Origin: Marsupella aquatica
Taxonomy: Eukaryota; Plantae; Marchantiophyta
NCBI GenBank assembly: GCA_973895155.1
Contig: OZ316892.1
Span: 21,639,619-21,703,618 of the forward strand
Direction of reading: 5' to 3'
Length of the DNA stretch: 64,000 nt
Shown: positions 1 to 58,707 of the stretch, piece by piece
How the letters are laid out: each line of letters begins with the position of its first letter
Position numbering within the stretch: the first letter of the stretch is position 1
Program-made: the position numbers and the translations under genes
The notes under the pieces: generated by a model
Databases searched by the model: none
What the model was told of the DNA's origin: nothing
What the model saw: only the letters and a program-made list of their open reading frames with translations

Positions 1-879
1 AAGGAACAAAAAATGATTCAATTAAGACAAAAAGAGTTATGAATGAAGAATTTGACAAAGAACACAAACTCAAGTAAAGACAAAGAGAGTAATGAATGAT
101 TACTTTGGAATAAAGTACAAGAAAACATCAACTCCAATAAAGACAAAGAGTATTATAAATGCTAGGAAAACTTTGGTATTTTACTATGCAAGGTTCTAAT
201 TAAAAATTAAGAATGAAGTTTTTTTCTAAGTGAATGCAAATAAGTATTCCAATCCACTAAAACTTATGTGAACATTAGAGATTTGGGAATGAGAGAGTTG
301 GAGTAACTATTGCTACTTAAATTTGTTGAGATTCAAAAATATTAAAATGACTAACTCATGAATTCATGAATCATTTCTAAGGGAGGGTTACACTTTGAAA
401 ATAATAATATTGTAATTGGTTTGTGTGAGATAGATTAAAGACAAACAATTCATTACAAGACTCATTTGAAATTTTTAGTCTATATATGAAAGTGTTTTAG
501 ATATTTTTGATTCCAATCAACTTTAAGATGATATTTTAAGGATAAACTAGACAAATGATCTCTTGAACATGTGCAAGTGCATATTGTTAAGATTGAAAAT
601 AGATCGTACGAAGATTAATAATTTATTATGGTTCATTTTATGTTTTGAATGGCTCAAAATGATAACATATTTTGGGCATTTTTTCCATCCATGAAGATTT
701 TGCAGAGAAAGGGATAGTTTTTAGGTTCATTTTGGGACATTTTTGAGCTTTTTGCGCTTTTGGAGCAAAAGTTCTTTTAGTTTGGGTTTATTACCCATCC
801 TTTTTGGCTCCTTGTTACACGGTATGCACACACAAGGGGTGACTTAAAACCCCTTTAAAAAATAGTCAAACATAAGGAA

Positions 880-1911
880 AAGTGTCGTTACACACCTTTG
901 TCGTTGTCGTTTACACGAGAAAAGTGAACGCCATCGACGGGAAAAGTTGCCGAATTTCACCGGCACAGTCTGCTACTCCAGCAGAGAAAAAACTTCCATC
1001 ACGTTGCCTTCACTTTGTGCCAAGTGCCAATCCCAGACTCAAAATGACCGCTTTGTCGCAATTTCACCGTTGAGCCCTAGCACTTAGCATTTCTTCCTCT
1101 GAGTTGGAGTCACGACATGAAAACCCGGTTCAGATGGGAACAAGCTCCATAGCCTGTAAAAAAATCTGAACGCCTCTTTCAATCATCACGATGCACTCAA
1201 TAACCACTTGGCAACAACCCAGCTACCGAAACGATCAGCTTGCTACAATCTTCAACTTGAGCTATAACATGCAATGCCTCTGGCACCGCATAGCTCACCC
1301 TATTGAAAACACAAGCTCTGGTTTCTCCCCCGTAAAACTGTCAAACACAAATAAATCCAGAATGACACAAACTCTGATTCCTCTGCACCACGGATACCAA
1401 CCAATGAGTTCTATACACCAATAGAAATCCCTCTCACTAATCCTATCCGATCAGCCACACAATTCAAGTTTTGTGCGATGAAACTCCAAATGCAACATCG
1501 ACACTGAACGCTGGAAAAACCGTCATGAAAAACCTCGTCACCTCCCAGGCATGCTCTGATACCAATTGTTAAGCATAGACGACAATTGCAACGGCAAGTC
1601 CATGAACCATCCAACGCACAAGAGCCGACATAGAGAGATATGTGGTTCACCTCCTCATGAGGCTACGTCCACGGGAATACTCATGAGCTTTACTGCACTC
1701 TAGGCCGACCGGCCATACCAAGCATCCACCACGCAAGCTTTCTCTATCTCTCAACTAGCTTTGTAACAATGAGCCTGAGTTCCCACTCTCCAAGCAAACA
1801 CCGTTTGGTTATAGAGTGTGCACAGCATGACTAACCTAACTAAGTCTGCAACTAAGGTTAGCCTTAACTACTGTACAGTCGTAACTCTAGACCTAAGAGT
1901 AAATCCTAACA
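880..1911 (-). mobile_element. 5' end of a Ty1/Copia LTR retrotransposon: LTR 1567-1911, Met-tRNA PBS 1553-1564, untranslated leader
   Basis: LTR is bounded by TGTT..AACA (345 bp). GCTCTGATACCA is the reverse complement of the PBS TGGTATCAGAGC. The LTR is closely similar to 58363-58707 and to the reverse complement of about 59570-59910, which precedes a Copia gag-pol. Left limit is approximate. Confidence 0.85.
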
Positions 1912-3094
1912 AGCTCTCTCACTTGCCAAATCCTGCCAAACAGCAGCCCAACCGTGTTCAATCTCCCAAGGGAACTTGCATTGGGGAGGCAAGGCCAAGT
2001 AGGTGAGGAGGTAATTGAGTTCCAAGGGTGCTTGGCCCCTAGGTCATCAGTGGGGAAAACTGGGAGTTGGTTGCTAGTGTCGGGGCCATTCTGGTCCCGG
2101 CGTGTTGGGACAAGCTTTAGGACAAGCTACGCTAATTGGGCCATGAGCATGTCCTGGGGTCAGGGCGGTCAATTGGTGATGGATAGGTACAAGGGGGAAC
2201 CCGGGCCGCGCCCAAGGAAGGAGCTATTCTGGATGAATAGTGGGTGTAGGTTTTGGTTCCAACTTATGGCATCGGGATGACCTATCGCTGACCTATTTAC
2301 CAACATCTTGTTGAGCTTGAGTTAGGATTCTAGACTTGGTGAGTTCTAGATCCTGAAGGGTTACTTACCAAGGTGCTTGATTGCTTGTGCAGACAGTGAG
2401 GACCGTTGAGTAGCAGTCGTGTTGGAGAGCAAGTGTGGCTTTGTATGGGAGAGGCCGCTGGCGGTGTAAGAGGGCACTGGGTTGCTTGCTTGAGGTATTC
2501 CGTGGAGGCGTTCGAGCACCAGGGGCACTTAGACCACGTGAGTGCTGGGATTGGTGAGGGCATTGGGTGACACGGTCCACCACTTTGATGCAAGACAATG
2601 GTCTTGGGAGTTCCGAGATCAAGACGGGTTCTTACCGATTGGTTGGTTGCTTGTGCAGATAGTAAAGACCGTTGAGCGACTGTTGTGCTGACAAGGGCAA
2701 GTACAGCTTTGTATGGGAGGGGTTGCTAACGACAAGGAGTATAGTCGGAGAGAACTTGCCCCAACATTCCGTGTTAGTGCAAGGTTCAACTTGTTTCAAG
2801 GTTGAGAAGCGAGTTTGGACGGGCACGTGGTGGGAGGTCCACCACTGTCATTATGTAAAGGATCTTGGGTCCAGGCAAGGGCCAAGGCGGCAATCAGGCA
2901 CAACAGGTTGGGGTGAGGAGGTAGGGAGAGCTACAAGGAGGGAGCCGGGCCAAAGAGGGACTCATTGTCTTTGACTTTGGGCACACGGTTCTTAAGATGG
3001 GGAATTGGGGGGAGTTGTGGCTCCCTTGTCAGGTTGTAGAGGCCCATCATTGTTGGTCCCTTGGAGATTGCAATAGGCAGTTGTCATTCAATCG
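1912..3094. mobile_element. Degenerate repeat/TE remnant, left half; it continues at 29836-30561 after removal of the Mutator-like insertion
   Basis: TSD TTCAATCG(G) at 3087-3095 recurs at 29827-29835. Contains a diverged ~266-bp direct repeat (2364-2890). No credible protein. Confidence 0.5.
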
Positions 3095-3296
3095 GAGGTT
3101 TTTCTCCATGACAGGAAACAGGAAAACATAACAGTAAAAGAAGATAGGGTTATACTTTAAACATTCGCCATCCATCAATAAAAATAGGGTTCGAGAGAAC
3201 AGTTATAAAACGAAGTTCAAAAGTAAAGCCTGAGAAAAATGGCTCCATGTATTAGTAGGATGTATTATCAGCTAGAAAGGTGAGGTTCAGAAATAC

Positions 3297-4838
3297 TTGG
3301 GCGCACCAATTGGGGTGGGGCTGCAGACAGAACAGCTGCATAAATTCTGTTTAGACAAGATCAGCTCTCGTCTTTCTACTTGGGTAAACAAGCTATTGTC
3401 ATTCACAGGTAGAACCCTTTTGGTTAAGCATATTTTGCAAGCAATTCCTATATATCATGTGATGTACTGTAAAGCCTCTGCTAGTCTGGTGAAGAAGTTG
3501 ATTGCTCTTAGTCGAGATTTCTTATGGGGATACAATGCCATAGGGGGAAGGAAGATCCCCCTGGTGGCCTGGGAAAGGCTGGCACTTCCTAGGGTGGAGG
3601 GGGGTCTGGGATTTAAGGACTTCAGAAGCCACTCAGATGCATTGCTCTCCCAATGGTTCACTAAAGCACTTAACTCCCCGGACCTAGAATGGTCTAGAAT
3701 GCTTGCTGCAAATCTGGCTCTGATGGGATGGATGAACTACAAAGTGATCAGACAAAATCGATATTCCTTTCAAGACCAGCTATTACTGTGTACACCAAGG
3801 TCATATAGTGGCCTTCCATATACAAGTGGACTATGGAGGAGTTGGACGATGCTCAGAGTGCACCTGTCTTTTGAACCTGGCAGGCTTGGGGTTCCGGCGC
3901 GATGGAGCATCTATGACACCTTACATTGCCTTGCAGGATTCCACTCCCATTTGAATGAGGCCATTGTTGGGGTTGCTACCATTTGTGGTAGACTAGGAAT
4001 GAGATCTATTGGGGACGGATGGTCTTTGGAGGATAGAGCCTGGAAGGAACTCCCAATGAGATGGCACAGCTTGCGGGGTTTCACTACTCAGCACCGAGCA
4101 CTTGCACACTCATTCCTAGAATACCTGTGGAACACCAATGAATGTAGGACTGACTTTTACCTATATGCCAAACAATGGAGGTGGGCTGACAAAACAGAGA
4201 AGTTGAAGGATTTCAGGGTGGATAACTGTCGTGTTTATGAATTCCTGCGGCCCAAAAGCTCAAATCATGATCACCTTAACTGGATCTGGTCCATTTCTCG
4301 ACCTGAATTGAGATGGAACTTGGGGTGGTCTAGACTGTGGGGCTCTGATTTGCCAACCAAGGGCAAGACATTCATCTGGAGAATTATTGTTGGGGGTCTA
4401 TTCACGGGTGCTAGGGCACTTAGAATTGGTGTGAGCAATGGTGATTACAAGGTGTGTAGCGGTACCTTATAGACCATCCCCCACATGTTCTTTGGATATG
4501 CATTTGCTGTGAGGTGCTGGGGACTCTACCACTGCTTCTTACGTGAGCTGGGCTTACCAATTGGCCAGGGGCTGCTGACTTTGTTGGACTCTGCTTATGG
4601 GAGGGACCCTGAGCAGATTGCCAAACTATTTGTCTTGCAACAGATTTTATGGAGGTTGTGGCTTGGTAGGAACTCCCATATGTTCAATGCAGGTGGTAGA
4701 CGTACATTTGATATGGGCCTAGTGCTTTCTAAGGCTGCTGAGTGCTTGAATGTTGTGAGTAGATGCTCACCCCCTGGTAGAAAGAACACCTGGTTGTGCC
4801 GGGCAAAAGATAGGATTGACAGTTTACATAGGCTCTAG
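3297..4838 (+). pseudogene. LINE ORF2 C-terminal part (RT thumb, zf-RVT) with an in-frame stop at 4470-4472
   Basis: ORFs 3297-4472 and 4485-4838 are in the same frame. LWGSDLPTKGKTFIWRI...C..TL*TIPHMFF is typical of the plant L1 zf-RVT region. Confidence 0.85.
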
Positions 4839-7009
4839 CTTAGTGATGGCAGGGGCTGTATTTCGACTGGTGGATGACCCTGTGCCCACAAATGGATTAG
4901 AATGCGTGATTAGTGTCACCTGCTTATCAAACAATTTACACGACAAATACATATTTACTCCTACTAAAATCATTTGTTATCATATGACGGGAACGTGGAG
5001 GGATGCTATTAGGATTCTATTGCATGTAGGATGAGTATGTTTATTTATGCTCCCGGAAATATAGTTTTTGATCAAGTCTATCGACTAGTCCCGTTGCTTT
5101 TGATCAAGTCCCATGGACTACGCCACACACACACTCCTACTGGTCGTTGGTGGAGTGTTGTCACCACCCCCCCCCCACTCACATGGTCGACCCATCCGTG
5201 CAAGTATTCTTTAGGCACTTCTTGGGGAAAGAACACAATCGTGAACCAGACAAGATAATGCCACACCAAAACTTGAGGAATCAAACCAAATCCATATATT
5301 TTGGCAAAACGTCGTAACACATTGCAAGGACAACCCGGCCTCCTGCCGTCTACCCAACTACTGCCTCACTGGGGCAAGTGCTACACCTCTACCTCACTAC
5401 TCTGGCTTGATTCCCTCTTCTGGCTATGAGCTAACTTCCCTAAGCAAACACTAGACTGAGTTCCCCCCCTAACTACTCTGGGGCTCTCCCCCTAAATACT
5501 CAAAATAACCCACCAAAGCACCCGGTCACAAGGATGGCGGCTTACCCTAGCGGCACCGCTAAACCCTTCACTAAGAAACCCCTAAACTAAAAGCATGCGG
5601 CACACACATGCTTCTAAAACCCTAAATCCTAAACTAACAATGGGGCCGACGGTGCCTTCGACGGCGCCCCAACGTTACTCCGTGAACCATGAAATTGCAA
5701 GGAACCCCACAATGGCCGAAACTAGGCGCCCTTCCAGTTGCACTTCTGATTTCACCCTTGGATAGCCCTCCTCCTCCTGATCATGAATCACTCAACCGCT
5801 CTTGAAACGGACATCGGACGACCAAGTTATGGCCGTTTCAGTATCCCATAAACCCAACTTCACCGGGCCCTAACTTGCTCATCCTGGCTCCGTTTGAGGA
5901 ACCCTGCCTCTTGTTGGAATCAGCTCCGCGAGCTCTTTCCAACAAGCCCGTGAGTGACTCCTCACAAAAAAGTTGGAAAGTCAAGGGGCCGTACAACCAC
6001 GTCCGTACGACCACTCTAATCCTCCTCCTCTTCACTCACGGTGCCCTGGCTTGAGCCCCGTGAGTGGGCCTCCTTATCACTCTCCACTGGAGTGAGTGCC
6101 ACTTCACTCCTCTTCTTCTTCACCGGGGTACTCCTTGTGCTAGTGCTCCCCTGTTTCCTCAAATTGGCCAAGGCCTGCCACGCCTTAATGTACCCTTCAC
6201 CAATGGTGTTCTTCCATAAGGTCGCCTCTTCATCGGACCGCAACTCCAACGGTAAAACCTGCCTGGTGGCCATGCACTAGTATATTTTTGGTCTCTTTCC
6301 GATACTCAAATCGCGGCTTCTTTGACCCGTCCAAAACTGAACGCATCGGAAAAATTCCGATATTAAACCCATCGTAATTTCCGATTCAAAATATATCGGA
6401 ACTAAAGGTACCGATGTAAAATGCATCGCAAACTATATCCCATACCAGCACTATTGGATAATGTCCAAAATTAATAGCATCGCAAAGAGACGACAAAAAT
6501 AAGGCTTTAGCTTCCGATGCAATAACACTCAGACCTGAGGCTCATTGGAAAAACAAACGGACATGGTCCGATATTTAAAACAACGGACATAATATTGGGA
6601 AAGATATTGCTTCGGAACCTAGGTGCGATAGTAAAAGTAACGGAAGGTGTCCGAAGGTAAGCATATCGGACCCCTCCTTCATCATTTTTTCCGAGAGGTC
6701 CGATGTTTTCTAGAACGGAAAAATGTTTCCGATAGGTTTTGAATCACATGTGTCCCGTCACTTTCAATATCGGAAAGAGGTTTAGTTCTCCGGCCGAGTA
6801 CCGATGCCTGTGCGATGTAGATTCCATGGGATTGACAATGGGACATTGTATTGTGGTCATGGTTTGATTATGGATTTTTGTAGCAATATAGTTTATGCAA
6901 TGGTAGAGAGTGAGAACACATGAAATGCCGATAAATATGTAATGCCAATAAAATAGCCACAAATAAGATGGTAGGGGTTAGCTACGCCTTTGATGTACTA
7001 GATATTGAT

Positions 7010-10000
7010 CTAACTAGTGGAGGGAATGTCAGTATCTTCCACTATAACTACATTAGGTCTATCGTGGACGATGGATCGTGATCGTGGAATGTATGCCATG
7101 ACAATGCACCAATATGAGTCATCTGGATAGGGTAGGTAAAAACATTGTTCAAGGTGATGGGGGAACGCAAAGGGATTTGAGGACCTCCAATTTGAGCTGA
7201 TGACACTATTTGCGGTTGTCTTCAACCGGGTAAAACCGCATGCATCATCTTCACATGTCCAGTTGTGGCCCACAAGATTCATCTTGAACCATTTGCACTT
7301 TAATACCACTTCCTCCAAAGTAGTATGTGCATGGTACTTTATGGTAAGGATTTCCTCAATCTTTCCATAATGGGCGACGGTGGACCGAATGGGATTCCTG
7401 TCTAATGTGCTACTCTGTGAATCCTGGGTGAACCAACCCATCACGCCACAATCTTGTGTAGCTGCCCTCTTCTCATCAAGTCGTTCAACACGAAAATGTC
7501 TCCCCTTGGACCACATGGCTATCCGAGTCGTGACTATAAGTAGTGGACCATGAATCAAGGTACAAAGCTTATCAGTCACCTTTGGGAAGTGTGATATGCT
7601 CTCCCCAATACCCACCAAGGCATCCACTTCTAGCATCTTTGACTTCATGTATGGGTGAAACTTGGGCAATAATCGTGGTCGCCGACTGTTTTTCTTCTCC
7701 TCCTCATAAAATGTTGTCCACTCCCCTACAACCTCTGGTGAATTATACAACATAAATGTTGTGAGCTGCAAACGCTCCGTTGAGCTCAAGAGACGCTCTC
7801 CTGATGCCCCAGTGAGTCTATCATCCTCATAGTCCGCCTCTCGCGCTGCCTTATGTATCCATCCCCTAGGAGCGTTAGGATCTAGTATGGCAACTATGTT
7901 TGTACAATAAAACATACTCTTTGCTCCAAGATGACGCTCTGCGATGCTACCTTCCACCCTAGCGCGATTAGAGACGTACGACTTCATCACCCCCATATAA
8001 CGCTCAACCCAATACATCCATCGACAATGCACTGGGCCTGCAATTGCAACCTCATGCACTAAATGTATGAGAAAATGAACCTGGCCATCAAAGAAAGAGG
8101 GAGGGAGTGCCTTCTCCAACTTACAAATAACCTCTACTCCAAATATCTCCATTGCAGCAATTTCATCCTCCTGTACCTCCTTCTGACATACCCATCTCAA
8201 AAGCTTTCCCAATGACCAAAGGGCATCACGAAGTTCCTCACTACCCAATCCAATAATCGCAACTGGAATGACATGTTCTAGTAACCGATGATAATCATGT
8301 GTTTTCAAGTAAGATGGCCATTTTGGAGAATCATCCCCCCCAAATGCTTTTCGGAGATTTGCGCCATAACCTGTGGGAAACCTCATTGACCCAATACGTC
8401 TGCAAAACTCAGTGCGCTCTGCCCTAGTCAAAACCCAAGGTGGATGGATGCTAGGGGGGTCTCCAGGGGGGTCCAAAGATGGCCAAAAACCAAGAAGACC
8501 ATGCATCCCCATCTCCTCACAACTTTCTCTCCAATTGTGGTTCTTCTCCCCATATAGATGACGAATCAATGACCTCCCCACATTCCCCTCAATGTGCATC
8601 GGATCTAACAAGTGATTAATGGGCATCTCTGACCAATATGGCAACTGTGATAATGCAGACAAATGGGTCATGCCACATCTGAGAAATTGTAATGGATCAT
8701 CTGGGTCTTGAACTCTTTGCCATACCTCTCTCCAATATGCTGGATCCTTTCACTGAGGTTGAGGACGGGTATCAGGTTGGCCCTCATCAGTGTCATACAG
8801 GAAGTGGTCACTCCTCCAAGGATGGTCTGTTGGAAGATATTTGGTATGACCAATGTAAACTATCTTCCACAAAGTAGTTGACTTGCGTCTTGCCACTCCC
8901 TCCAAATCTGGTCCACATGAAGGGCAAGCTCGATAGCCTGATGTTTGCAATCCAGAGATATATCCAAACCCTATGATTGGTCAAGGGACAGCCAGCCAAT
9001 GAAAGAAGGTTAGAGAAAAGAATACAATTTTTAATTAAGTGCAAGATTGATGAAATAGGGTTAAATTAATTGCAAGGTTTACTGTGATTACTTGGTAAAT
9101 CATGCATGGTCCACATAAGAATGGCCTTGAGGGTGAATGCGCGAGATAAACCTCCAGTGTTGCGACGTCCGTCATAACAATCCAAGTCTCCCCTCCAAAG
9201 TTGCAAAAGCTCATCAATCAAAGGTTGCAAGTAGATGTCAATCTTTTTTACTTGCTAAGGACCGGGGATGATCATTGAGAGTAGTAGATGACCTTTCTTC
9301 ATGGCCATCCATGGAGGGATATTGTAGTTTGTTAGAACTACTGGCCATACTGAATATGGTTTTGCTTTACCTGCCAATGCAAAAGGGCTAATACCATCTG
9401 CTACCAATCCAAGTCTCACATGTCGTGGGTCAGTTTTGAACTCACCCCATCTATCCTCTACAAATCGATTGGCAAGAGAGTCAACCATCATTCGCATGGC
9501 ACTGGAGTCTGTACCCATATCAGAACGATGTTGTGAGTGCCATACCATATACTCAGCCAACTCTGCACAACGGTATTGATTTTGCAATCGAGGGATGAGA
9601 GGAAAATACCGCATAACTTTTTGAGGCACCTTCCCTGTCAACATGTCATCACGGTACCGCGGCTTCTCACACTCAGGACATATGATTGCATTTTCATGCT
9701 CACCCCTAAAAAGAATGCAGTCATTTACACATGCATGTATCACTTCATACTTTAGACCAATGGACTTCAACACCTGTTTAGCCTCCTTCCAAGACCTTGG
9801 CATGTTGTTGCCTGGTGGTAAAATGCGATCATGTAGGGTACGAAAAACATCATCCAAAAGTAGGTTGCTGGCCCCATGTCTTTGTTGCACATTCAACAAT
9901 AACATTATTGCTGAGAGCCGAGATAACCTACTCCCCTCAAATATGCGAGTACGAGCATGACGTTGAGCCTCTTCCCATTCCTTCTGCTGGCCCCCCCTAG

Positions 10001-10232
10001 AAGGATGAGTGGTGTTGTCGTCGGTTAAACCCATGTCCTCCATACCAATATCAGCATCATCTTCATAAAATTGGTTCATGAGCCCATCGATGGCCAGCTC
10101 ATCTTCAAGCCGATCTTGGGTAGAGTCATCATCCTCATGTTGTACCTCATTCTCCTCCCCATCATTGGCCACCATGGCCTCAACAAGGTGTTGCCGCATA
10201 GCTCGTGATATTACCCCAATATCAGGCACCAC
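7010..10232 (-). pseudogene. CACTA Tnp2-type transposase (Transposase_21, DUF4218/DUF4216-like regions), spliced and frameshifted
   Basis: Motifs IHACVNDCILFRGE..CPEC, RYFPLIPRLQ, LGLVADGISPF, YSVWPVVLTNYNIPPW, LDPMHIEGNV, LKTHDYHRLL, PPSFFDGQVHFLIHL, GPVHCRWMYWVERYM. Confidence 0.92.
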
Positions 10233-10361
10233 ATATTGATTCTATCATACAACATCAATGCATGCAATCTCATCAACATCAATATTGTGAACAACCAATT
10301 ATCCAATGTTAAAAATGGAAAAGAATCCGATATATATATGTATATATGTAAGTCCAAGAAA

Positions 10362-11652
10362 CTATCTTGGACAGGAACGTAGGGACAATTTTGGTGCATC
10401 CCACTCATAATCACACAATAACTCCTCACCAGCTCTAATGGTCCTAACAGCGACCATCATGATGTGATCATCCATATGTTTCACAAAATATGGAGCTCTA
10501 GGTGGACCAAACATCTGGATCCACTCTACATTAGCCTCCAAATCTCTACCTCTACCCATGGTACTATTGATGTACCCTGCTAAATTACAATTCCGAACAG
10601 GGTCACCATCAATCATCCTACAATGCCACGGCCTAGTGAAGACCTCGTCTGGGTCTGAGTCCATCCTCAATGCGTACACCCCCCAACTTGGGTGTTGACA
10701 CAACAAAATGTTCCAACTCTTAGCGTTGTATACAGCTCCAATGTAAGGGAAAAGGTGCTCTCCATCATAGCCACGTCTCCATGGCTTTGGAGGGACAATA
10801 ATGTCCTCCAAAGCATATAGACCATATCCTATATCAGCACCAATGGAGGAATCTTTCACTATCCAAGAGCGACCCCATATCTCAATCGGTTCATTAATAG
10901 GAATGTAGTCTGGAAATTTGAAGAGACTAGGATCAAAGTCTTTCAAAACGTTGGTTGCCCTACCAGTGAGATAAGATGCTCCAAACCGTCCGTCAACCCC
11001 AATATAATCTACATTGTTGGATGGTCGGGCACTGCCTAACACCTCCTCCCTGTTGTCTACCTGTTCCAGTGGCTCATATTGCCGTCTACGTCTGCGAGAC
11101 CGTGGTCGTGTACATAGGACTCTTGTACACCCAACCTCCGATCCAGAGACCGGTTCACCCTCTACATGCTCAACTATGGGGATAGGAGCAAGGGGGCTAA
11201 GAGGTGGATGGGCAAGGGGGGATGCAAGCAAGTCCCTTGCCCTTGCTAGAAACCCTTCTAGCCACACAACATCATCAACCAAAGGAGGTGGGGGTCTACG
11301 AGGCACCTATTTCAACACACAATAAATTAAGTAGTGTTATTTGAATGCAAGCTAATTATACAATATTTCACCAATTGCCATTTCATGAAATGAAAGGGGG
11401 GATGTATGTATAATTATTTACCTGGCTAGGCAAATAACCTGGCATATCACCCTCATGGCGACCATAGTTCTCAATGTGCTCACAAGTCTCCCAGGCATGT
11501 CGAACCACAAGTCCCTTGCATCTCACACACCAGCAAGGTATGGGCCCTAGTGGAGCACGAGGATGGTCAAGAGGAGGGGGTGGAGGAACCTCCCCCTCGG
11601 ACAAGCTCGTGTCAGAGTCTGAATCCAATGTGGAACTATCGGATGTAGACAT
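10362..11652 (-). CDS. CACTA-borne two-exon ORF: transposase-associated Zn motif (11422-11652) spliced to a SET-domain-like exon (10362-11306)
   Basis: Exon 1 has PCWCVRC...CEHI. Phase-0 GT..AG intron at 11421-11307. Exon 2 has GYGLYALEDI, NLAGYINS..ANVEW and VAVRTIRAGEELLCDY, which match SET motifs. Confidence 0.7.
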
Positions 11653-12822
11653 CTACATACATATCCAATTCAACATGTAAGTTAGATTAAACAACTTCTT
11701 GTGTCGATGTATATACAAACATAATTAAGGAGATTTACATAGAGAGACATTGCCCTACGTACCTCAATGATACCTGCGCTTTGCTGTGCCTATTGGGCTA
11801 TATTCTCGACACACAAAGTGTGGGATATCCAAAATCTCTGCAAGGTGGGCATTTCAATAGTGAGCTAAGTGAAAAAGTGCATGACATGCACACCTCGGCA
11901 AACGATGTGTCAAACTTGCCAAAGTAAACCTCTATGTTACAACTTGAGGAGAATACATGGATGGGCCAAGAAACATCATACCTCTTGGCCGCGCGGTCTA
12001 ACGCTATGCATAGTGCATTATCAAAAAAGACTACCAACCCTCCTCAAAAAAACTAATTAGCCTACCCCTCCATGCCAAAATCAAGGTACTGCACATCATA
12101 TCCAAACACAAACATTAGCCTAACAATGGTTTCACGTTATCATAAGAAAATGTACAACACTATCCTCATAAAAACCCTAAACCAATGTCTCAAGCAAGAC
12201 TATATAAGAATTGCATCATTATAGCCTAACATATTAGGTATGCACAACCAGAGTAAAATTATCCCCCAAAAAATGAAAATCAAGAACAAACCCAAAAAGT
12301 ATCCGTGAAGAAGGAACTAGTATGCACAAGAGTCACATGCACGTCACGGTCACCCTCCCAATGAGGTATGTATCACCCTACATTAAAAAACCTGTCAATT
12401 CAAATGGAAAGAAAATGTTAACACAACCATACCCAACCCAATTTCAAAAAACCCCAAAACTCTAGAATCCATACCCAATTCAACCCAAACTAAACACATT
12501 CCACCCCCTTTGGGAAAGAAAAGGTGCATCCGAAAGAATTCTATAAGGGGCCCGATACTATAAGAAATGGACAAACCTTGGCAAACAAAAGGCAACCCAT
12601 TAACACCGAGGGGTCCGATGTCAAACATATCGGAAGGTCCGATACCAATACCGATGTTCTCGGCTTTGGAAAGTCCGAAGCAATTTGCATCGGACGCAAC
12701 AGGCCAGATTTCAAAAAAGAAGTCCCGACGCTGGTGCGAAGACCTGCGAGTCGGGACAAGCTTCGCACTTGACACTTAGGCTATTGCCGAGGCTGGGAGG
12801 GGAGCTCAAAGGAGGAGGGGAG

Positions 12823-15331
12823 ATGGTGGGAGGCGAATCTGGTGGTGGGGATGGGGCTGGACCTTCTCGGGCATACGATGAGGTGATGAAGGAGATTTTT
12901 GTTGCTAGGGCCGGGTTGAGTGTGGAGGATGCAGCTAGAGTAGTCCCGCTTTTGCAGACCTTGTTTGATGCCTCAAAGATTGAGGCTGAGAAAGCTGTTG
13001 TAGCAGCCATTGCAGCTGCAAAGAAGAAAAAGAAGGAGGCAAAGAGAAGCAAGGCAGATGCAGAGGAGTCTCTCTCTCCTCGAAAACGAGAGAAGAAGCT
13101 TCGGAGGGAGGCTAGGGAAGCTAAGAAGGGGCGAGTAGAGGAGCTCAAGCGAAAGGAAGCAGAGAGAGCTTTGAGGCCTGAGCTACCCCTAAACTCAGGT
13201 GGCTCTCCATTACCCAAGGGCTACAATCTCTTTCGCAGCCAATTCAAACAAGTGGTGCGGGCCAATTTGGGGCCATTAGATTACTGGGGCAAGAAGAAGG
13301 AGGAAGAGAAATCCAGAATTTGAGAGCAAGTGAAAGAACGATTCAAGAACGGGGCACACATTGACGATAGGTTCTTGAACAAGAGGATATCGGCCTCACT
13401 CTCAGACATGCAAAACCATCAAAGAGAGAAATTCAGGAACTACCTTGCTGAGATGCCGATGGATGCAGAGGTGGTCAGGGAGCAGGGCTGTCCAGATGCG
13501 CTTTCCTCAGATGAGTGGGCAGCTTGGCTTGAGGAGGAACTAGCAGTCCGAGCCTGGCTGCAAAAACGTCACTACAATCTTGAAATCAGCCTGGCAGAGG
13601 AGAAGAGGAAAGCTGGAGAGGAAATTGACATCCTCCCTCTCCAACAGATGCTACGACAGTGGCATGCACAAGAGGTAAGACTCCCCAAGCCACCAAAGGA
13701 CATCATAGCAGCTTTGCAACGAGTGCAAGGTCGACCTGTGGTCACTCACCGGATGGGGCAAGGCGGCTCCAATCAACTGAAGGCCAAATTTGTAAGATTC
13801 CTCTCCCTCCTCCCTAGCTCCTCCCCCCGACCACCTGACCTTCTATTGCGAAGAGTGACCGTTTTTTTGCCTCCAAATGCTTTAAACCCTTTGTGGCCCA
13901 ATGGTGTAATTTGCTCTCGGCCCTGTGCTTTCCGATAGGTGTCCGATTCTTTCTGCATTGGACCCGACATTGGACCTCTTGTTATTCATTTTTTGCCACT
14001 AACGTTCCGAGGCAGTTCCGATGCTAAGACAATCGGATGGAGAATCGGACCCCTTGTGGAAAGCTTAATTATCAGGTTTTGTGGCATTTTTAGGGGGCTT
14101 ATAGCAATAGTTTAACTCGGGTATTAGGTTTAGGGGTTTCATGATTGAGTAGCACTTTGTGGAGCTTTTTAAATTAGGGTTAGTTTTGAGAACTAGTTTG
14201 ATTAGGGGTTTATATATAGGGTATAGGATATGTATGGGTATGTGGCCGGGGTCCTATTTTAAATTAGGGTTTACTATGATAACAGTTTTAATGAGGCGTA
14301 TGTAGGGTGTGCATTATGGGGTCCAAGATTGCTTGGTTTCATGCTAATGGGATATTTTGTTTGGGACTGTAAACTGCCAGGAAAGGGAGTGGGGTAGACC
14401 TATTGGGCCATCCGAGAGGGATTTGGCAAAGAGGAATGGACCCCGCGCTCTTAAGCGCCACCTTGAGGATGAGTTGGGAGAGGTTTGTGTTCCCCCTAGG
14501 TTATGAAAATGTTTTTGGTTATGGTGAATTTGTTAGAGTTTTGGAGGCCCTATATAAACAAATTTAACAACAATTTAATCCTAGCTATGTATTGCGTAGG
14601 AGGAGGAGTCAGGATCGGATGAGGAGTCAGGTGGGGCAGGTGATGAGGATGCAGGTGATGAGGATGGTGGTGATGAGGATGGTGGTGATGAGGATGGTGG
14701 TGATGAGGATGCTGGTGATGAGAATGCAGAGGATGCGGCAGGGTTGGTGAGAGTGGCCACGGTTACCCCTATCCCTCATGTTGCCCCCACATCAGCAGAG
14801 GGTGCTGGTTCACATGATGCTGATGGTGTGGGCTCCCATCATTCAGCAGCATCACGGGGTGGTAGGCCCGGGCCGTCAGGGGGAAGTAGAGGTCGTGTGG
14901 GACCAGGCCATCGGTCAGGGGTACATAGTGCACCAGCTGGCCCTCCACGACGAGGGACTAGTGACATACAGGATGGTGGTTCTAGGGGTCGAGCGCCATC
15001 TCGTGAGTCTGGTGGGAGTACAACACGGCACGGGCCAGAGACAGCACATGCAGGTGGAGCATCCCATCACTCGCGTAGGTCTACCGAAGAGGGCTCCTTC
15101 CACTCTGCTGTGTCGGGGGTGGTGGGACATCTGTCTTGCCTGAGCACCATAGTGGTGCATCTAGTGGTTCAGGGTCTAGACCGGCATCAGGCCAACCCAC
15201 GCCATCCACTGAGCAGGTGGCTGCCACGGTTGTGGATAGCCACCAACATGAGGGGTACCTGTACCCCGCCCACGCTCTCGCCCAAAGAAGAAGGGAAGCA
15301 ACACACCTTTTTAGAGGTTTGTGGTACATAG
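12823..15331 (+). pseudogene. CACTA ORF2 (TnpA/Transposase_24-like), divergent from the transposase, with a stop and introns
   Basis: ORFs 12685-13323 and 13330-13938 are in frame across one TGA. CPDALSSDEWAAW and THRMGQGG motifs. Donor GTAAG near 13792. Acidic/low-complexity exon from about 14600. Confidence 0.55.
14630..14730 (+). repeat. 15-bp minisatellite GGTGATGAGGATG(G/C)(T/A) encoding GDEDG/A
   Basis: About 6 tandem units directly visible. Confidence 0.85.
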
Positions 15332-18300
15332 TGTCTGATAGCTTTGATTAGAGGTACCACATAGTGTAGGCCAGTTAGAGCGTCATTTTGGTGTTTCATG
15401 TAGCCGTCACCGGCCCCTATGGCTCTATTGCCTATCTGCTCATTTCATTTTGTACATATTGGGGTGTTCCCCATTGTGAAAACCTGATATTTAATTCAAC
15501 CACTACCTTGCTTTGAGCATGCTCTTTGGACCCTATTTTGTCAATCTCAGCCTGAACCCTAAACCTAAACCCCCAAATGATTCCCATGAATCCAGTATTA
15601 AACCCCCACAAACCCTAAATATCCATTATTAGTCAATCCGGTGACCTAGCTTATATCCGATACCATACGCTACAGAACTTCCAAAGTAAAATATTTTGGA
15701 CCCCTCCTCCCAAATGTCCGATATTTTCAGCATCGCAATTTGCGTTACAAACCACTACGGATGTCCCGATACGTATTGCTATGCAAACTCCGATATGTTT
15801 TACGTCGGACTATCCCATATAAAATACATCGGACCCTTGATATTACCTTGCTGTAGCATCTTAGTATCCGATGAAATTAGAATCGGACACAAATTATCCG
15901 AAACATCCAGTAACGGATGTACCAATTGTTTCAGCAATGAAAAGTCCGATGGATGTCCGATTGTCGATATCCGATGAATGAAGTATGGGAAATTGCGAAG
16001 TAAATCACATTGGACGCCTCATTTTTCCGCGTCAAAATTTCTGAAAAAGTCCGATGTTGTTAGGATCGGAAAAAGGGCCAAAAATGTACTAGTGATGGGA
16101 GTCCCATGGGTGACAGATCGGGGTGGCATCCCCGGGGTCCCCGTGTTGACCTGAGCTTCTCGTAATGATTTACGTACCTCCCTGAGCTTCTTCTCTATGC
16201 TCTTGCTCTTCTCTTGACTCTTCTTGGCTGCATCCAACAGGGGTCCATACTTCCCACCGACTTCCTTCACCACCATCTCAATGGCCCTGGAGATCAAATC
16301 CGGGGAAAGTGTGGAGCTAGGTGTGCAGGGTCTCTTCCGTTTCCCCAGACTCAAGGCCTCACTCCTCTTAGTCCTTGTCTCAAAGATCACCATTTGACTC
16401 CGTAGTGCTCCCACCTGGGCTCTTAACTCCACCACTTCTCCAGAATTCTGCTTCTCTTTGGCCAATGCCTGTTTCAATACTCCAACCTCTTCCGCTTCCT
16501 TGGCCTTGGTGGACAAGGCTCCCTTCAAGTTGGAGATCTCTACGTGAGCTGCTTAGAGAAGTTTAACCTTCTCATGAATGGCCTCCTCCTTGGCCTTGAT
16601 CACCTCCTTCATAGACAGGGCACTCTGCTCCAAAGTCTCTACTCTGGCGGTGGCCTGCTTGAGAGAACCTCTCAATGCGTGGACTAGCTTGAGTCCCTCA
16701 TGGACTCCCTCCCGGAATTCCCGTAACTCTGCCAGGTAGACATCAAGAATGTCGTAGACCAGGGGCTCCTCCGGATCTCCCACAAGTGATTCAAGCCACT
16801 CCAATGTGGAGTCCTCATCCTGGTTTTCTTCCTCTCTATTATCATCCCCAACCGTTGACGATGATCCCTCCGTTAGTTTCCCCACGATGGTAGTGGCAAT
16901 ACTCCTGATTTCCGTGGTAAGGGATGATCCAGAGTCTTCTTGTCCCGGGGAAACAATCCACCCTTCTGCTCTGGCCAGAAAAAATGACCCCATCAAGTGT
17001 GCAGCCCCACCTGGTTTCACACTCCCGGGATCTGCGTCCAATAGCTTCTTCAACCCATAGTACCACCATCCGTACACATGGGCTGGATAGTTCTTGATGT
17101 CCATAGCTACCACAAAATGCTCTCCATTCACCACCCCGGATTGCACGTTACCTAGGACCCGTTGATGAACCTTGGCCAGAAATCCCTTGTGCTCAGCATC
17201 CTTGACGGCGGAAAGAGGAATGGAAGTAGTGGAGGTGGGATTAATTACCCAACCGGCCACCATTGTCAACGTGAGTTCTCCCCTTATGTTCCGAGGTGTG
17301 AATGAGAATTGCTGGTTCTCCAGAAATAGAAGCTTACCTAACTCCACATGGGGCACTACCCGTTGGAGACATTCAAAGTAGATTCCTTCCGTACGTAACT
17401 CCATCCCGGCCTCAATGTTCCAACTCTTCCCCGAAGGGATTGTAATCTCCACCTTCATGAACTCCGTGAGCCCGATGGCTTGAAAAATATTCCTACAATC
17501 CTCCATCACCTTGGCGGAGGTTTTGGGATAAATTTGACAAAAAACCCTCCTACTCACTGGTGCAGAACTTGCCGCCAGTCCAGTACTCATTGTAGTTTCT
17601 CTCTCTTTTCTCTCTCTTGCAATCAAAGTCTCAACGTAGTCATGGTAAGTAGCCTTGTATCTTCGAATGTGTGCCGCACTAAACTCCTATTGATCCAGCA
17701 TCCATGCATCCAGAAATCAAATCCTCAATCACCAAATCCCGTCACCCGTAGCAATGTCAATTCCCTGGCCTGAAACGGCCCCTGTATCATGATCAATCAA
17801 TTACCCTCAATTCCCTCAGAAGCCACTCCGTGCTGCTGCCGCCAATGCCTGGAAGAATCATGCCAACAAGCCCCAACAATTGACCATGAGAAAGAGCTTC
17901 CAGAATAATTGTAAAATGTGGAGAGAGCTTTCGGCAATGAGAGAAATTGCTTTCGGCAGAGTAAGAAGTCGCGCAAAGAGAAGGGAGGGAGAAAAAAAAT
18001 GAATACAAAGGAAAGGGAAGTAAACCCCTTTCTTCACCCTCCTCATCAATTTTTTTTCTCCCGGCTCCCCTCACGCCATGCGCCCTGGCTCGTGGCCCTA
18101 TGAAGGGCTCGCGTATGCCGACACGCGGCCCTCCTCACCTACCGTCCCCGCACCTCACTGCAGGTGCCCAGTCCTCCAAGGTTGGGGGAATTTAATTCCC
18201 CCCCTTTCCTCGCAGCCCCTCATGCGGGCCCTTCCCACGGGAGCTTAATTGCCCCCCCCCACTCCGCGACCTTCTCCTCCTGGCGCCGGCCGCGGCCCGG

Positions 18301-20425: not shown

Positions 20426-23400
20426 TTAATCTGCACACTCTGACCCACTACTCTTCGATCTATCTGTAGACTCTGCTTCATCGTCTACAAATTCATTCCG
20501 TGCCATGTCGTCGACAAAAGGATGATGGATAAACTTCCGATCCGAACCTCGTCTCAATTGCAAGCCTTTATTCTCCCAAGTCAGGGTTCTCCTGCTCTCT
20601 TCTTTGTGAGCGGCATACTCGGCGTAGGAAGGCAATACAAATGGTTTCTCCGGGGTAATGAGAACCTTCCTTGAAAATTTCCTTCGTAGGTGAAACCTCT
20701 CGCAAACATTCCACTCGGACCTGCGAGTTGGTTAGAACACTAAGTACGTGGCTTTAATTGATGTGTCTAAAACAAAACAAAGAAAACAAATAGTAAAGTA
20801 ATGTGAAGGAGCTTACGGGCATTACTCTGAGGAATCTGAATCATCTATTTCTCCTTCTGCATTCCCCTCTTCCTTCTTCTCTTCTACATTATCTACATCT
20901 TCACCACCATCCACATCACCAACATCGGCTTCTTCTTCTTTGGAATCAAAATTCAGAACATAACAAACTTTGTCCTTAACTTTTTTCCCCTGGTCTTTGC
21001 TCGGACCAGCCTCATTCACTTCTTTGGGGAGAAGAAGATCAGAACGTCTTTTCAGCAATGGACACAAATTCCTTGCGATTTTCAATCCCAAGAATGAAAT
21101 GGCCACAGAAGTCACCCGCAACAAATGTGCTCCCAGAACCAACCGTCCAATCCATAACAATATCTCCCGGATGCGTAATTAACTCAAGGACAGACTGCAT
21201 GAAGCCGATAGGCAGACGAGCATTCCCAGCAAATGCACCTTCAGGAGAAGGATCATTCTTGAGACTTTGCAATCCAATGAGATTCGTGATTGAAGGGTCT
21301 TCAGTTACAGACAAAGGCTTGAACTTTACATCCTTTGGAACCCTGACTTTCGATGTAACCCGACTGAAGATGTCAAGTCTTAAGGTGAAAACCTGTGAAG
21401 TAAGTAAGAAAAATGAGATATATAACAAGGGACATGGGTAGCGCCTGGCGCTACCAAAAAACCAGACGAAAAATAAAGACTTTAACCCTAAACTCAATAT
21501 TGTGAAATTGAATATATGACTAGCGCCAAGCGCTAGCCAAAAAGGTAATCAATGATGAGGATAATTACCTGACAATCGCTTTTGGCCATGTACATTGGGA
21601 CGCCCATTACAACATTGAGTGTTTTTAGGCACTGGAACTTCTGGGACTCTTGGCTTGCGGAAATAACTTGGGAGATCTGGTCGTACTCCCCAGTGTGCAA
21701 AACTGCTAACAATCCATCATCGGCTAGAAATGGGTCCATGGCCCAAAAAAAGGAACCTACAATTTGGTGATCCGGGACATTCCACTTTGGCGACTTCCGG
21801 TGAAGCAAAGAAGGTCTTAGCCCCGTTGGTAAATACACAAACCCCGCATCTACCCCAAACGCTCTTAACTTCCCTCCCCTTACAACGCCTTTCTCGCGGA
21901 GACCAAGTGCCACTAAGTCTTTCCCCCACTTTTCAATAGTCATCACCCATGCGGGTTTGGTCTCATTTGTAAACACAGATTCAAAAAAGTCCATAACACT
22001 GGACTCAACAAACTTATGACGTCTAACCTTTGAATTGAATCGACCAACTTCTCGTTGGACCCCGGTGGACGCAATCGAACCAAGATCGTGGTTCTTCTTC
22101 TTCTTTTTCCTTGTGCTCGTGGCATCAATAGGACGAGATACGTTGGCATTGGTTGGAGGAGTTTGTTCTTCCGAGGCGTCAGCAGCCTCCGTGTTTGCTT
22201 CGGAGAGCTCTGGGGTGATGGTCGTCTTTGCATCTTGCGTTTCTTCTCCCTCTGATTTTCTTCCCCCTGTAAAAAGTATGAATAGAAATTAATTAAGGAA
22301 ACTATACCAGCGCCTGGCGCTAGCCATCCAGTGTATCCATAAATTGGAACAGAATTATGAGTATCTATCTAACATTTCAAAGTAGCGCTTGGCGCTAACC
22401 AAAACTATGAAAAAAACCAGAAGAACAATAAGTTGAACATCTTACGTTTTCTTCCAGATTGTGTCGACGGGCTATTCAATCCTGTATCCATTTTTACTTT
22501 CGCGCGTGGCTTTCGGCTTCGGTCAACATGTGTGACTTCTGTCTCGCAAATTTTTTGAAGCTCAACCGCTGAAGCTTCCACATCTCCCACTAAACCTTCC
22601 TTCATTTCTGACAGCAATTTGCAAGGAACTAGAGATTTGGACAATTTCAGAAAGGAGTCTTTCTCAAATTCATCAAAAGGTGTATCCCACTTATCAGTAT
22701 CAAGGTACCACAGACACTTTGCTCTCTCCCACTCAGAAAGGTCATGCAGAGGGTTGGTTCCATCTGTCAGATACATACAATAAACCTCGCTGAATGCATC
22801 CCCATCCATGACAGACCACTTCTGGAATGCAGGAGGGTAAGCCCAGAAGTATTCAGGCGAAACGCTCTCCATGGACATGAAGAACCGATAAAGATATCTC
22901 TTTGCCCCGCTTCTGGTTTCATGTAGTGAAATCTCTTTCTCCCCATACTTTGAAGCCCACATTGTGTTGAAGAACTTGGCCTTCACAATATCTCCGTAAA
23001 TTCTGAAATCATTACAAACGCTCTGGACCAAACCATCAAAAGTATCTACTCCTCCTGTCACAAGTTGTTCGGGAGGCATGATCGATTCAACTTGCCTGAG
23101 AGCAGTCTGCAACATCCCTATTGCAATTCCTTCTATCCAACTCCACATGTGCCATGTATGACACCATTGCTTCACAGGTTCGTCATTCACACTAGGTGGA
23201 TGGAAAAATTGTTTTCGAAGTTCAGGTGTGCAATGTGCCACAAGAAGAGTAGAACGCAACTTTGGATCCAAAGTGGAGACAGCAGTGAAGAGTCGAGCAC
23301 AATCCATTGTACAAACAACGGACTTTGCTTTCTGTTCCCGCTTGTTCTTTTCTGTAAGAGTGTACATTTCTGCACAAGTTGACAGAAAATCATTGAATTC

Positions 23401-24602
23401 AGGACTTAGGAGAGGAGTAATCTTTGAGGTCTTCACGCTCCATTCCTTCGTGGCCTCCTTCATCATCGCTGCGTGACGCTTAGCGACCTCCTCCTTTGAC
23501 CATGGCCTTCCTTGAGAGTTTGCGGTTGCCATGTCCATTTTGAACTGGAGAGAGTATGACTTGATCTTGTTCTCACACAAGATGTAAACAAGAGCCTCCA
23601 AAGGCATCTTCTTGGTATACCAAGCGCCTTTCCTTGTCTTCGCTTGAATCGCCTCGAATCGTTTGAAGCTTCCTGTGTCAATGATCGCCTTATAATAATC
23701 AAGGTCATGGGACAGAATTTGATTGATTCGATTTGCATCCAAGATCCATGATGATTCTACCACCGCTTGTCCCAATCTGAAACCAAACGGAAGTCATCAG
23801 CACCAGGCACTAGCCAAACATCGACAAAAATATTCATTCTTTTTGACATTCAATGAAAGAAAATGATGGAACTTACTGATTGACTGTGTGCATTGCAGCC
23901 TCAATCTCGATGAGAGAGCCTCGATCTCCCTTGAATACAGTGCAAAGCACACGAGGATGGTACTTGATATTTTTGGGGTTTTCATCCGTGATCTGTAACC
24001 AAGAATAGAGACGATGATTCCCGTCAAATACACAAAACATCTTGTCTTTTAAGACAAGAAACTCGGGATCCACTTCGCAATCCGCTTCAAATTTCTCATT
24101 CTGGGAAACCCATACAACATCCCAACTCTCACGAATTTTGGGTATGCAAAATTGGATAACCCCTTCAGAATCAGCGGGTTGCACATAGAACCGCATCCCT
24201 ATGGAGGAGTTGTAACCGGAACTCCGAAATGAATCTTTGAGCTTCTTGATCGAAGCACTCTCCTTCTGCAAAGTCTGAACGACTTCCATGTTGACTAAGC
24301 GGCAAAGCGGTATATGGGGGGGATTCTTAGGCTCTCCTCTGAAATCAGTCCCAAATGACATCGCATGTTTCGCAATCACATCACCCATCGACAGAGCCCC
24401 TTCGCTTCTGTCCTCCATCACGAAATCGCTGAAATTCTCCATGGCTCCTTGTTTCTGCAGATGAGTGCAAAGCACTGTAGACTATTTGCCCAATATGTCA
24501 AAGCGACTGCGATGCAGTTGAGCGTGTAACTCTCCAAGTGTAAACAGAACCAGAGAATGAAGTCTCGGATGTCTCAAAATTATCGGGAGAAGTATTGTCC
24601 AT
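20426..24602 (-). pseudogene. 5-exon ParB/Srx-like + helical region + N6A/N4C DNA-methyltransferase-like fusion gene (copy 1, a few lesions)
   Basis: VFDGNHRL near 24010-24030. VDAGFVYLPTGL (motif-IV position) near 21830. PFLADDGLLAVL and LITHPGDIVMDWTVGSGSTFVAG..GHFILGIE (motifs X/I/II) near 21080-21180. GT-AG introns at 23876-23777, 22445-22267, 21568-21393 and 20816-20721, all conserved in copy 2. Confidence 0.75.
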
Positions 24603-28900: not shown

Positions 28901-29574
28901 GAACGGAAAGCTAGTTCAAAAACCGTAGGACCTGTACCTCTATGTAACCCATCACGATAGGCAGTATAGGCGGCAATTTGGGAGATTGCTCGATTGTGGT
29001 TAGTTTTGCACCCCTCAAATAAACCTACAGTTTTCTTCCCTTGCCAAGCTTTCATGATACCATGAACTGCCTCAGATCCTGTGCAATTGGGAATCATCCC
29101 TCCTTCTTGTGCACTTTTGCTCTGTAGGACGGCGAGGGTCCGTCTCGAACTAGGAACGGACGCCCAATGAACCCCAGATCAAATCTTACTCAGGAATATC
29201 ATAGAAGGATTGAATCTGCTGCTAAGGAAATGATGACTCTCATCACAGAATTGGACGTCTCCTTAGGGAACTCTTATGGGAAACGATTCCGCATCCAAAC
29301 ACACGCTCATTTGAGGACGGCAAACACTTACTGAGTGCAGATTTGCATATTCTCATGCTGCTCTTGTGAGGATTTGTTTCGTCGGCATTCTCAAGGAAGA
29401 CCTTTCATGCCTTGTAAGCATTTGTACTGGGTTTACAAAACGGTCTTTAAGCTAGATCCATTGGATTCGATGTTACCAAGCCAACCAATTCTTACTATCA
29501 GTGAACTCCAGTACATCTTAGGAATGAAGAATAGCATGGTTTTTAGGAATTCTGACCATTCTAGTAGACGTTGA
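25939..29574 (+). pseudogene. GCM-like Zn domain / MULE-type DDE / SWIM transposase (copy 1), frameshifted, exon 2 partly inverted
   Basis: C..SLEC..NSC...CRYC...C...HMGVHDHP (GCM/WRKY-like). SFDVMH, FMADNAHAGWLAVRNVF, DAFHFYQ and NCTGSEAVHG (MULE D-D-xxH-E pattern). CSCEDLF...PCKHLYWV (SWIM). Confidence 0.8.
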
Positions 29575-31170: not shown

Positions 31171-32062
31171 TTGTGTTGTGTACCGATTTAGTTGTCAGTT
31201 GGTACATTATGCTCCTAGACATCACCGACAGACTCGAGAGCACCGATAGTAACGATCTTCGTTCTGATTGCGACTCGTATTGGATCCAGGTACCACGAAC
31301 GAAAATTTTGTGCTACAATCAGAATTTCATTCTACCGTGGGGCTCAGTGTAAGTACTCCTGGACCCCATCAACACCTCGTGAACCTCCGTCATTGCTTGT
31401 TGGAAATGTGATATTACTCTAGACAGGGGGTTTAATTCGGTGGCGGCATCTAGGCCTGTCGGGACGCTTGATTGAGAGGATTTTCTTTGCTTTCGTTCAT
31501 GCTGCCATCTCAATGTACAAAGTCAGTGTTTGTGCCGATGTGGCTCTGGCGTCAGGGTATCTGAGGAGTTTTTCCAGCTTTGGTCCCATTTCTTCTCTGC
31601 ATCTTCTTCTTCGTTTATTCTTCTGCTGCTGTTCATTCCTGGATATTGCCATCTCACATTGGTACCTGCTACATTGACAAGAACCTCTGTTTTTCTCTGG
31701 CGATTGTAGTTAGGGTATCAGACAAGTTTCGCAAGCTTCCGTTTTGTTTCTTCCGCTTCTTCTCCGTCCGTAGGCTTTGGGTGCTTGTCACTTGTACTAC
31801 AGTTGTTGTCATTTAATTGCTAGGTTCTGTCCTGGATTTTGAAGGGAGATTCCGAGTCATTTCTCTAATTCGTCTTCGTCCATTGGTTTGTTAAATTTGG
31901 TTGCTTCGCTGATTAGCTGATTAACGTTGTAGCTCTTTGACCATCGTTTTTATCCTGGGATCGCATATGGTACAGGCGAGGAAAAGAATCATCGTTCCCA
32001 GCATTTCCAGAATTTGATGATCAGACGACTGAAGTAGGCGAAGACGACCATTCCGACCATCT

Positions 32063-47811: not shown

Positions 47812-48069
47812 GGAGACCCGAGCCAGCAGAGCAGCCCCGAGTCTCCCCCACCAGATGTCGCTCCCCCGAGCTTTGACGGCATAAAACAAACGGCGCAGGA
47901 ATTTCAGGAGCAAATCAGGGAGGAAGAGGAGGCAGCCCTGGCTAGGGAAAAGGATTTACCAGGAGGAGAATGGCCAGAGGACATCAGGCGGCTTGCAGAA
48001 AAACGAAGCATCCCTCCAGCCACAATAGAAGGAATCCGCAAGGCGGCTTGGGAGCACAAGCCACGGTGG

Positions 48070-58362: not shown

Positions 58363-58707
58363 GGTTGAGCATAGACGACAATCGCAATGGCAAGCCCATC
58401 AACCATCCAACGCACAAGAGTTGACTCAGAGAGATACGTGGTTCACCTCCACATGAGGCTACGTCCACGGGAACACACCGGAGCTTTACTGCACTCTAGG
58501 CCAACCGGCCATACCAAGCATCCACAACACAAGCTCTCCGTATCTCTCAACTGGCTCCGTAACAATGAGCCCGAGTTCTCCCTCTCCAAGCAAACACCGC
58601 TTGGGTATAGAGTGTGCACAGCATGACTAACCTAACCAAGTCTGTGACTAAGGTTAGCCTTACCTATGGTACAATCGTAACTCTAGACCTAAGAGTAAAT
58701 CCTAACA
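58363..58707 (-). mobile_element. Copia solo LTR (345 bp)
   Basis: Closely similar to 1567-1911. 5-bp TSD GTATG at 58358-58362 and 58708-58712. Confidence 0.92.

Follow-up and report, generated by a model that had tools for sequence, protein, structure and literature searches.

A complete CACTA/EnSpm transposon of 9,820 bp lies at positions 6275-16094 of the window, the 64,000-nt stretch of DNA from the liverwort Marsupella aquatica that was analyzed here, and its transposase gene contains a SET exon that ends in a stop codon. The reading we favor, with a probability of about 0.6, is that of a bryophyte CACTA transposon with a stop-terminated SET exon inside its transposase gene, whose pre-mRNA would be spliced in two ways. 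One pre-mRNA would start in short leader exons and continue into an exon for a zinc finger (the Zn exon). Joining of the Zn exon to the near acceptor at 11306 would yield a 391-residue Zn-SET protein; joining to an acceptor at 10241, with the SET exon skipped, would yield a Zn-finger transposase. Both splice forms are read from the DNA, and the alternative use of these two acceptors, in which the short form would end close to the 120-nt spacer that follows the SET exon, seems quite likely.

Several features place the element in the CACTA/EnSpm superfamily. Subterminal repeats are characteristic of such elements, and here TCCGA/TCGGA sites reach 27-29 per kb at the element ends, about 14-fold above the window average (1.9 per kb). 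The element is flanked by a 3-bp target-site duplication, another CACTA/EnSpm feature, and the empty site (6271->16095) is present in two contigs of run X4. Inverted CAC..GTG (CACTA/G) termini and the motifs C(2)C and H(3-4)H are named for EnSpm in excerpts of PMC12730594; the element has such termini, and its Tnp2 transposase contains both motifs, with two stops in the window copy. The features of the element are:

6275..16094, no strand assigned: element termini CACTAGTA..TACTAGTG, 17-nt terminal inverted repeats (TIRs) with 1 mismatch
6272-6274 and 16095-16097, flanks of the element: 3-bp target-site duplication, ATG
6275..6800, no strand assigned: left TIR, with subterminal repeats of TCCGA/TCGGA at 14 sites (26.7 per kb)
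15650..16094, no strand assigned: right subterminal repeats and TIR, 13 sites, 29.3 per kb
16095..16552, minus strand: 5' portion of the ORF of an unrelated repeat, split by the element, the frame resuming at 6274-6016
12823..15316 (limits approximate), plus strand: divergently oriented, broken, multi-exon second gene, TnpA-like by position only
~12003-11982 and 11837-11763, minus strand: two likely leader exons, placed by alignment with locus L001, with donors at matching places
11422..11652, minus strand: Zn exon, with an ATG directly after AG, a Ser/Pro-rich start, and a CxCxxC..H finger
11307..11421, minus strand: GT-AG intron of 115 nt between the Zn and SET exons
10362..11306, minus strand: SET exon, 314 codons and a stop, with a helix, a disordered linker, a beta extension, and the SET domain
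10242..10361, minus strand: spacer of 120 nt that follows the SET stop and closes with the AG of the transposase acceptor (10243-10242)
9092..10241, minus strand: transposase exon A, phase-0 start NQYVVPDIG, PF02992, with a stop at 9257-9255
7010..8970, minus strand: transposase exon B, PF02992, DUF4218, and weak DUF4216, with a stop at 8752-8750

In each of four runs, 726-4723 contigs, many of them less than 90% alike, cover every one of the 30 bins into which the element was divided, and the joints within these contigs coincide with predicted introns. One joint (11659/11662-11759/11760) falls between a leader exon and the Zn exon; two others (13648-13742 and 15319-15446) fall in or near the plus-strand second gene (~12823-15316), for which no significant Pfam match was found. 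The leader exon at 11837-11763(-) and L001 (about 440-496) have the peptide SPIGTAK in common, and over this stretch the two differ at third codon positions only; it is possibly a conserved upstream micro-ORF. The repeat ORF that the element has split (16019-17686(-), 6016-6276(-)) is similar in style to the ORFs at 46105-49482(+), which are coiled-coil-rich and without a Pfam match.

Pfam matches in the Tnp2 exons are to PF02992 (78.6 and 37.7 bits) and DUF4218 (103 bits), and exon B contains the motifs C(2)C, H(3)H, and WVERY. The transposase of the window copy is broken; related contigs lack the stop at 9257, all of them reading a different base there. The window copy has decayed, and its SET exon has private substitutions. 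The first Met of exon A is codon 15, an in-frame Met at 10199. Upstream of it, at the exon start, a P-x-[IFW] motif is kept in distant families (DNVFPDI, GDPHTPHW, GFDPPEI), and variants in codons 1-4 of related copies (10239, 10230) are synonymous only. Together, the conserved motif and the synonymous-only codons before the first Met argue that the exon is coding there, so that an upstream coding exon is required.

The initial annotation had pointed to an open 314-codon exon with SET motifs (GYGLYA, NLAGYINS, ANVEW, IRAGEELLCDY), situated between the Zn exon and the Tnp2 exons. Such a frame, motifs included, is indeed found at 11306-10362(-), preceded by the Zn exon (11652-11422) and followed by the PF02992 exons. 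Its SET domain spans about residues 95-303. The Pfam check that had been proposed gave PF00856 at 26.6 bits, above the cut-off of 22.4, which disposes of the possibility that a SET match is lacking. Among 43 aligned family members, SET was found in 36 and no other Pfam family in any (E 0.01). The SET domains of the host histone enzymes SUVH, ASH1, trithorax, and E(z) carry flanking pre-SET, SRA, AWS, PHD, or post-SET domains; the 43 members show no Pfam family besides SET. An AlphaFold2 model of the exon product, built on the 43-sequence alignment, has pLDDT of at least 70 at 214 of 314 residues. With this model, the best Foldseek E value is 3.9e-7, to SET8 and LegAS4, and the best VIA match (Z 12.1, rmsd 2.9 over 126 residues) is to a COMPASS SET chain, with numerous SET and PR domains only 1-2 Z units away. 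Among the VIA matches, row 37 is 3bo5, which we take to be the SETMAR SET domain. The named Atlas neighbors of the exon are SET clusters; a PDB search with the single sequence gave only E values of 0.6 or worse. The exon thus encodes a real SET domain, and its model has a SET fold. It resembles SET8/KMT5A, LegAS4/RomA, Set1/COMPASS, and PRDM in fold and in aligned Gly/Tyr/Asn residues, but identity to these is about 19-26% and none stands out, so that the modeled domain is one of no standout SET subfamily. The model lies at much the same distance from a wide range of SET subfamilies and PR domains, so that a histone site cannot be deduced from the fold. A viral fold search with the SET gave 19 matches at E <=0.001; none of them beats the PDB matches, and a viral origin therefore cannot be claimed.

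SET methyltransferases are marked by a GxG motif, an NH(S/C) motif, and an ELxxDY motif with the final Tyr. In the 43-sequence alignment the first and last of these are present (G160, G162, E295, and Y300 in 41, 42, 43, and 41 sequences, respectively), and Y193 (43), Y211 (40), N247 (38), and N259 (within 38-43) are likewise kept. The Gly, Tyr, and Asn positions align with their counterparts in LegAS4 and SET8 and presumably serve SAM and lysine binding. In the NH motif, Asn is kept in 38 of 43, and the His is absent from all 43, with Ser in its place in 42. This replacement, the long insertions peculiar to single families, a small residue two positions ahead of the final Tyr, and a fold that favors no SET subfamily over the others or over PR domains would all suit a SET domain retained for a non-histone or non-catalytic job. 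Such a domain might methylate a protein of the element itself, either the transposase or the TnpA-like protein, or it might act as a reader or decoy for host chromatin factors. We consider this unlikely, given that the Tyr, Asn, and Gly positions matching SET8 and LegAS4 are near-invariant and that LegAS4, in the alignment with the SET exon, also lacks the His. RomA/LegAS4 is nevertheless described as an H3K14 methyltransferase (abstract listings), so the His-to-Ser change does not exclude activity. The SET domain is probably an active SAM-dependent lysine methyltransferase, judging from these residues.

The Zn exon is the candidate shared component of the two proteins. HHalign of its finger against the N-terminal regions of 62 transposases gives 94.6% over 33 columns, an optimistic value because both sets (Zn finger and angiosperm Tnp N-termini) were chosen by their Cys patterns. 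Homologues of the exon at loci L002 and L003 match PF13963 at E 1e-3 and 1e-4, respectively, both below the cut-off; the Pfam search gave no PF13963 match for L001 or for the window exon. In an unbiased, all-frame scan of the window with an angiosperm Zn profile, the Zn exon ranked second at E 0.097, so that the window copy, taken by itself, matches weakly. Among the angiosperm relatives of the transposase, most have PF13963 in the same protein. Thus, the Zn exon is a shortened form of the transposase-associated domain with which ordinary plant CACTA transposases begin. In the fold of a Sphagnum Zn+SET homologue, the finger is a small hairpin-helix unit (pLDDT 58-77) on a disordered tether, and disordered stretches separate it from the SET domain.

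The initial annotation had also called for a check of the SET cargo across family copies, and had named as the contrary outcome a single captured fragment in decay. A full scan gave 94 SET relatives at 50% clustering; the named ones are proteins of Riccia sorocarpa and Calypogeia fissa, and Sphagnum gene models carry this SET as well. The nearest named relative is from C. fissa (73% over the SET core). For the transposase exon, the best-matching long relative is a Riccia model, which also bears this SET upstream. Among 47 proteins with the Zn finger, which are database gene models rather than transcripts, 27 combine Zn with SET, 3 have Zn, SET, and Tnp together, 17 have Zn alone, and none is Zn+Tnp; thus 30 of the 47 contain SET sequence (Riccia, Sphagnum, Calypogeia, and one other). 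A metagenome scan from a 10-sequence alignment gave 192 pattern matches and three loci (L001, L002, L003). All three independent loci, at 35-45% identity, have the layout of Zn exon, intron, and SET exon; in each, donor and acceptor are both in phase 0 and a stop terminates the SET exon. In L003 a phase-0 transposase exon begins 189 nt after the SET stop; its identity (25.5 bits) was equaled in none of 200 shuffles. L003 is the one locus that clearly reaches the transposase exon: L002 ends 57 nt beyond a candidate acceptor, and L001 ends short of one. Phase 0 at all three junctions is therefore fully seen in two families only (the window and L003), where it is inherited, not independent.

In pairwise comparison, pS (0.63-0.81) exceeds pN (0.39-0.46) in 6 of 6 pairs; dN/dS is about 0.2-0.5, a rough range since dS could be estimated in 3 pairs and is saturated in 3 of the 6. 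The 115-nt intron is unalignable in related copies although the flanking exons align (joints 11320-11419 and 11323-11418), and one X1 contig covers the SET and Zn exons with the intron replaced. In a tree of SET cores, restricted to the 48 of 138 proteins with near-whole cores, the window, Calypogeia, Sphagnum, and Riccia fall in one 39-row clade (99/96), with the window next to Calypogeia and more distant SETs outside; the tree has no named host or viral outgroup. A neutrally decaying host SET fragment caught by one copy would agree with the decay of the window copy and with a stop in the SET exon of L003. It is, however, a most improbable account, because the layout recurs in families 35-73% identical and in three bryophyte genera, and because residues are constrained while introns are unalignable. 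The comparisons instead indicate a real SET exon that is old, selected, and located inside a bryophyte CACTA transposase gene. A distant SET relative from C. fissa, P0148, has weak DUF5763-like Cys/His repeats at its N terminus and lies outside the CACTA-linked clade; it may be a member of this SET family that is carried by a different mobile element.

The splice sites support a shared Zn exon. As initially annotated, the Zn exon joins the SET exon in phase 0: the Zn exon closes with a phase-0 donor, CAG|gtaaat, and the reading frame continues across the AG acceptor at 11306. The donor at 11422 is the top-scoring GT in 11652-10362 (by our own rough weights). For the transposase exon, a TG acceptor at 10230 had been suggested, together with a shared GTGCCT start of both downstream exons. 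Neither suggestion held. The stretch from the SET stop to 10190 contains four AGs, of which TAG|AAT alone combines phase 0 with an open frame; it places the exon start at 10241. Contigs of four runs have no listed variant at 10240-10255; positions 10226-10230 vary widely, with no TG-to-AG variant listed. Related families start the two exons with other sequences, and the duplicated GTGCCT is a coincidence. The central idea of the initial annotation, that one leader exon yields either a transposase or a SET protein, stands as the best-supported model, with the acceptor moved to 10241. It is strengthened by the conserved AG of that acceptor, by phase 0 in distant families, and by the coding-type conservation before the first Met. 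Because the SET exon ends in a stop, the Zn donor at 11422 is the natural partner of the 10241 acceptor. It counts against the model that none of the 47 Zn-finger gene models passes directly from the Zn exon to the transposase with no SET sequence between them.

Two other arrangements of the gene deserve consideration. SETMAR/Metnase has a SET domain and a transposase in one gene, a domesticated host fusion that makes one polypeptide, and a donor inside the SET exon could likewise give a transposase that is a fusion of Zn finger, part or whole of the SET, and Tnp. The SET exon has weak GT sites in phase 0 at 11061 and 11043, and six database models (P0008, P0157, P0167, P0169, P0208, P0218) have SET sequence followed by transposase; P0008, P0167, and P0169 are among the 94 SET relatives. 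These joined models, including the 3 of the 47 above, are database predictions, and their joints fall at differing places and cut the domain. Furthermore, in 4 of 4 genomic loci the SET frame stops a few residues past the final Tyr, and the window has no phase-0 donor after that Tyr. A fusion is therefore improbable; in contrast to the fused SETMAR polypeptide, the window element belongs to a mobile family with a SET stop before the transposase. Alternatively, Zn-SET and transposase could be two genes, the transposase having its own start at the in-frame Met and no Zn finger, much as some Arabidopsis EN/SPM families have separate, tandem TnpA and TnpD (PMC13547354, in part). This we regard as quite improbable: it leaves the conserved motif and the synonymous-only variation upstream of Met 10199 outside the coding sequence, the spacer is just 120 nt (189 in L003), the acceptor AG has no listed variant, and the angiosperm relatives mostly have PF13963 in the transposase protein itself.

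If the two-way splicing of one transposase gene is correct, the shared finger might bring the SET domain to the element or transpososome, where histone-lysine methylation could aid escape from silencing or movement; this is plausible, and we hold it with some doubt. A bolder version, in which an old CACTA family of mosses and liverworts encodes a splice-switched, self-targeted histone lysine methyltransferase that rewrites the marks of its own copies, is speculative and rather unlikely as a whole.

Transposons with SET cargo are already known. The accessory gene PAG2 of red-algal Plavaka, a member of the EnSpm/CACTA superfamily, carries a SET, and SETs have been captured by Helitrons (both in portions of bioRxiv 10.1101/2025.02.11.637652); SET genes also occur in HarbingerS and oomycete MuDR (PMC12730594, in part). 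Like the window element, Plavaka has a PF00856 SET as standing cargo of an EnSpm-superfamily transposon. However, as far as PAG2 can be compared by description, it is a separate gene in which SET is fused to a PF01555 DNA methylase; Pfam found no PF01555 in the ORFs of the element or in its SET family, and the window SET lies inside a Tnp2-type plant CACTA transposase gene with a likely shared first coding exon. The HarbingerS, MuDR, and Helitron genes are also transposon-encoded SET-domain genes, but they belong to other superfamilies and hosts and are accessory genes, for which those excerpts mention no shared transposase exon.

Alternative splicing itself has a precedent in En/Spm, where TnpA and TnpD come from one gene and Spm3 TnpA has anti-silencing activity (PMC13547354; bioRxiv 10.64898/2026.08.24.746577; both in part). 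Maize En/Spm and Arabidopsis EN/SPM3 thus resemble the window element in having one transcription unit for a transposase and an accessory protein. As described in those portions, TnpA is a helix-turn-helix DNA-binding protein and not an enzyme, whereas the alternative product predicted for the window is a SET domain; the window element, unlike En/Spm, has a separate second gene on the other strand. Our literature search, outside of which lay Repbase Reports, subscription journals, and preprint supplements, turned up no land-plant CACTA that carries a SET exon, nor any SET exon in a nested position, and term look-up found no mention of one in the text covered of PMC12885004 and PMC4158355. Within the literature searched, a land-plant CACTA with a SET exon nested in its transposase gene is new.

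The plant transposon anti-silencing factors VANC and TnpA are, in the sources seen in part, DNA-binding proteins; a SET enzyme of a land-plant transposon, if true, would be a direct chromatin writer. Transposon-borne SET domains have until now been merely annotated, in oomycetes and red algae. Liverwort transposons are partly repressed by H3K27me3 (bioRxiv 10.1101/2022.10.24.513474, in part), which makes bryophytes tractable for testing histone methylation by transposon-borne SETs. There is also an annotation trap: many "SET domain-containing proteins" of Riccia and Sphagnum are these transposon exons, and one cluster of such proteins contains 360 sequences.

Other repeats occupy much of the remaining window. 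A second repeat family is present at 21039-24481(-), 26539-29178, 42351-45696, and 52488-55464. It contains a PF01555 N6/N4 DNA methylase (33.3 bits, above the cut-off, at 21039-21548; weak at 54862-55464), a motif at 23873-24481 that we take to be DGNHR ParB-like, and a CxC..CKH motif at 42351-43739, presumably SWIM-like. In this it resembles the ParB and methylase cargo of Plavaka PAG2/PAG3, as far as that is described. Around this family, at 19088-57470, a palindrome resembling TAGCGCCnGGCGCTA occurs in 24 dispersed copies, which are possible binding sites of the family's ParB-like protein. An intronless carboxylesterase (32033-32716(+), PF02230, 171 bits) stands amid repeats and is possibly a retrocopy or captured gene. 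A 100-300-nt repeat occurs in three copies (1523-1867, 58364-58663, 59613-59954), two of them inverted around 58364-59954, and the window also contains a LINE-like remnant (3276-4472) and a copia-like remnant (62230-64000).
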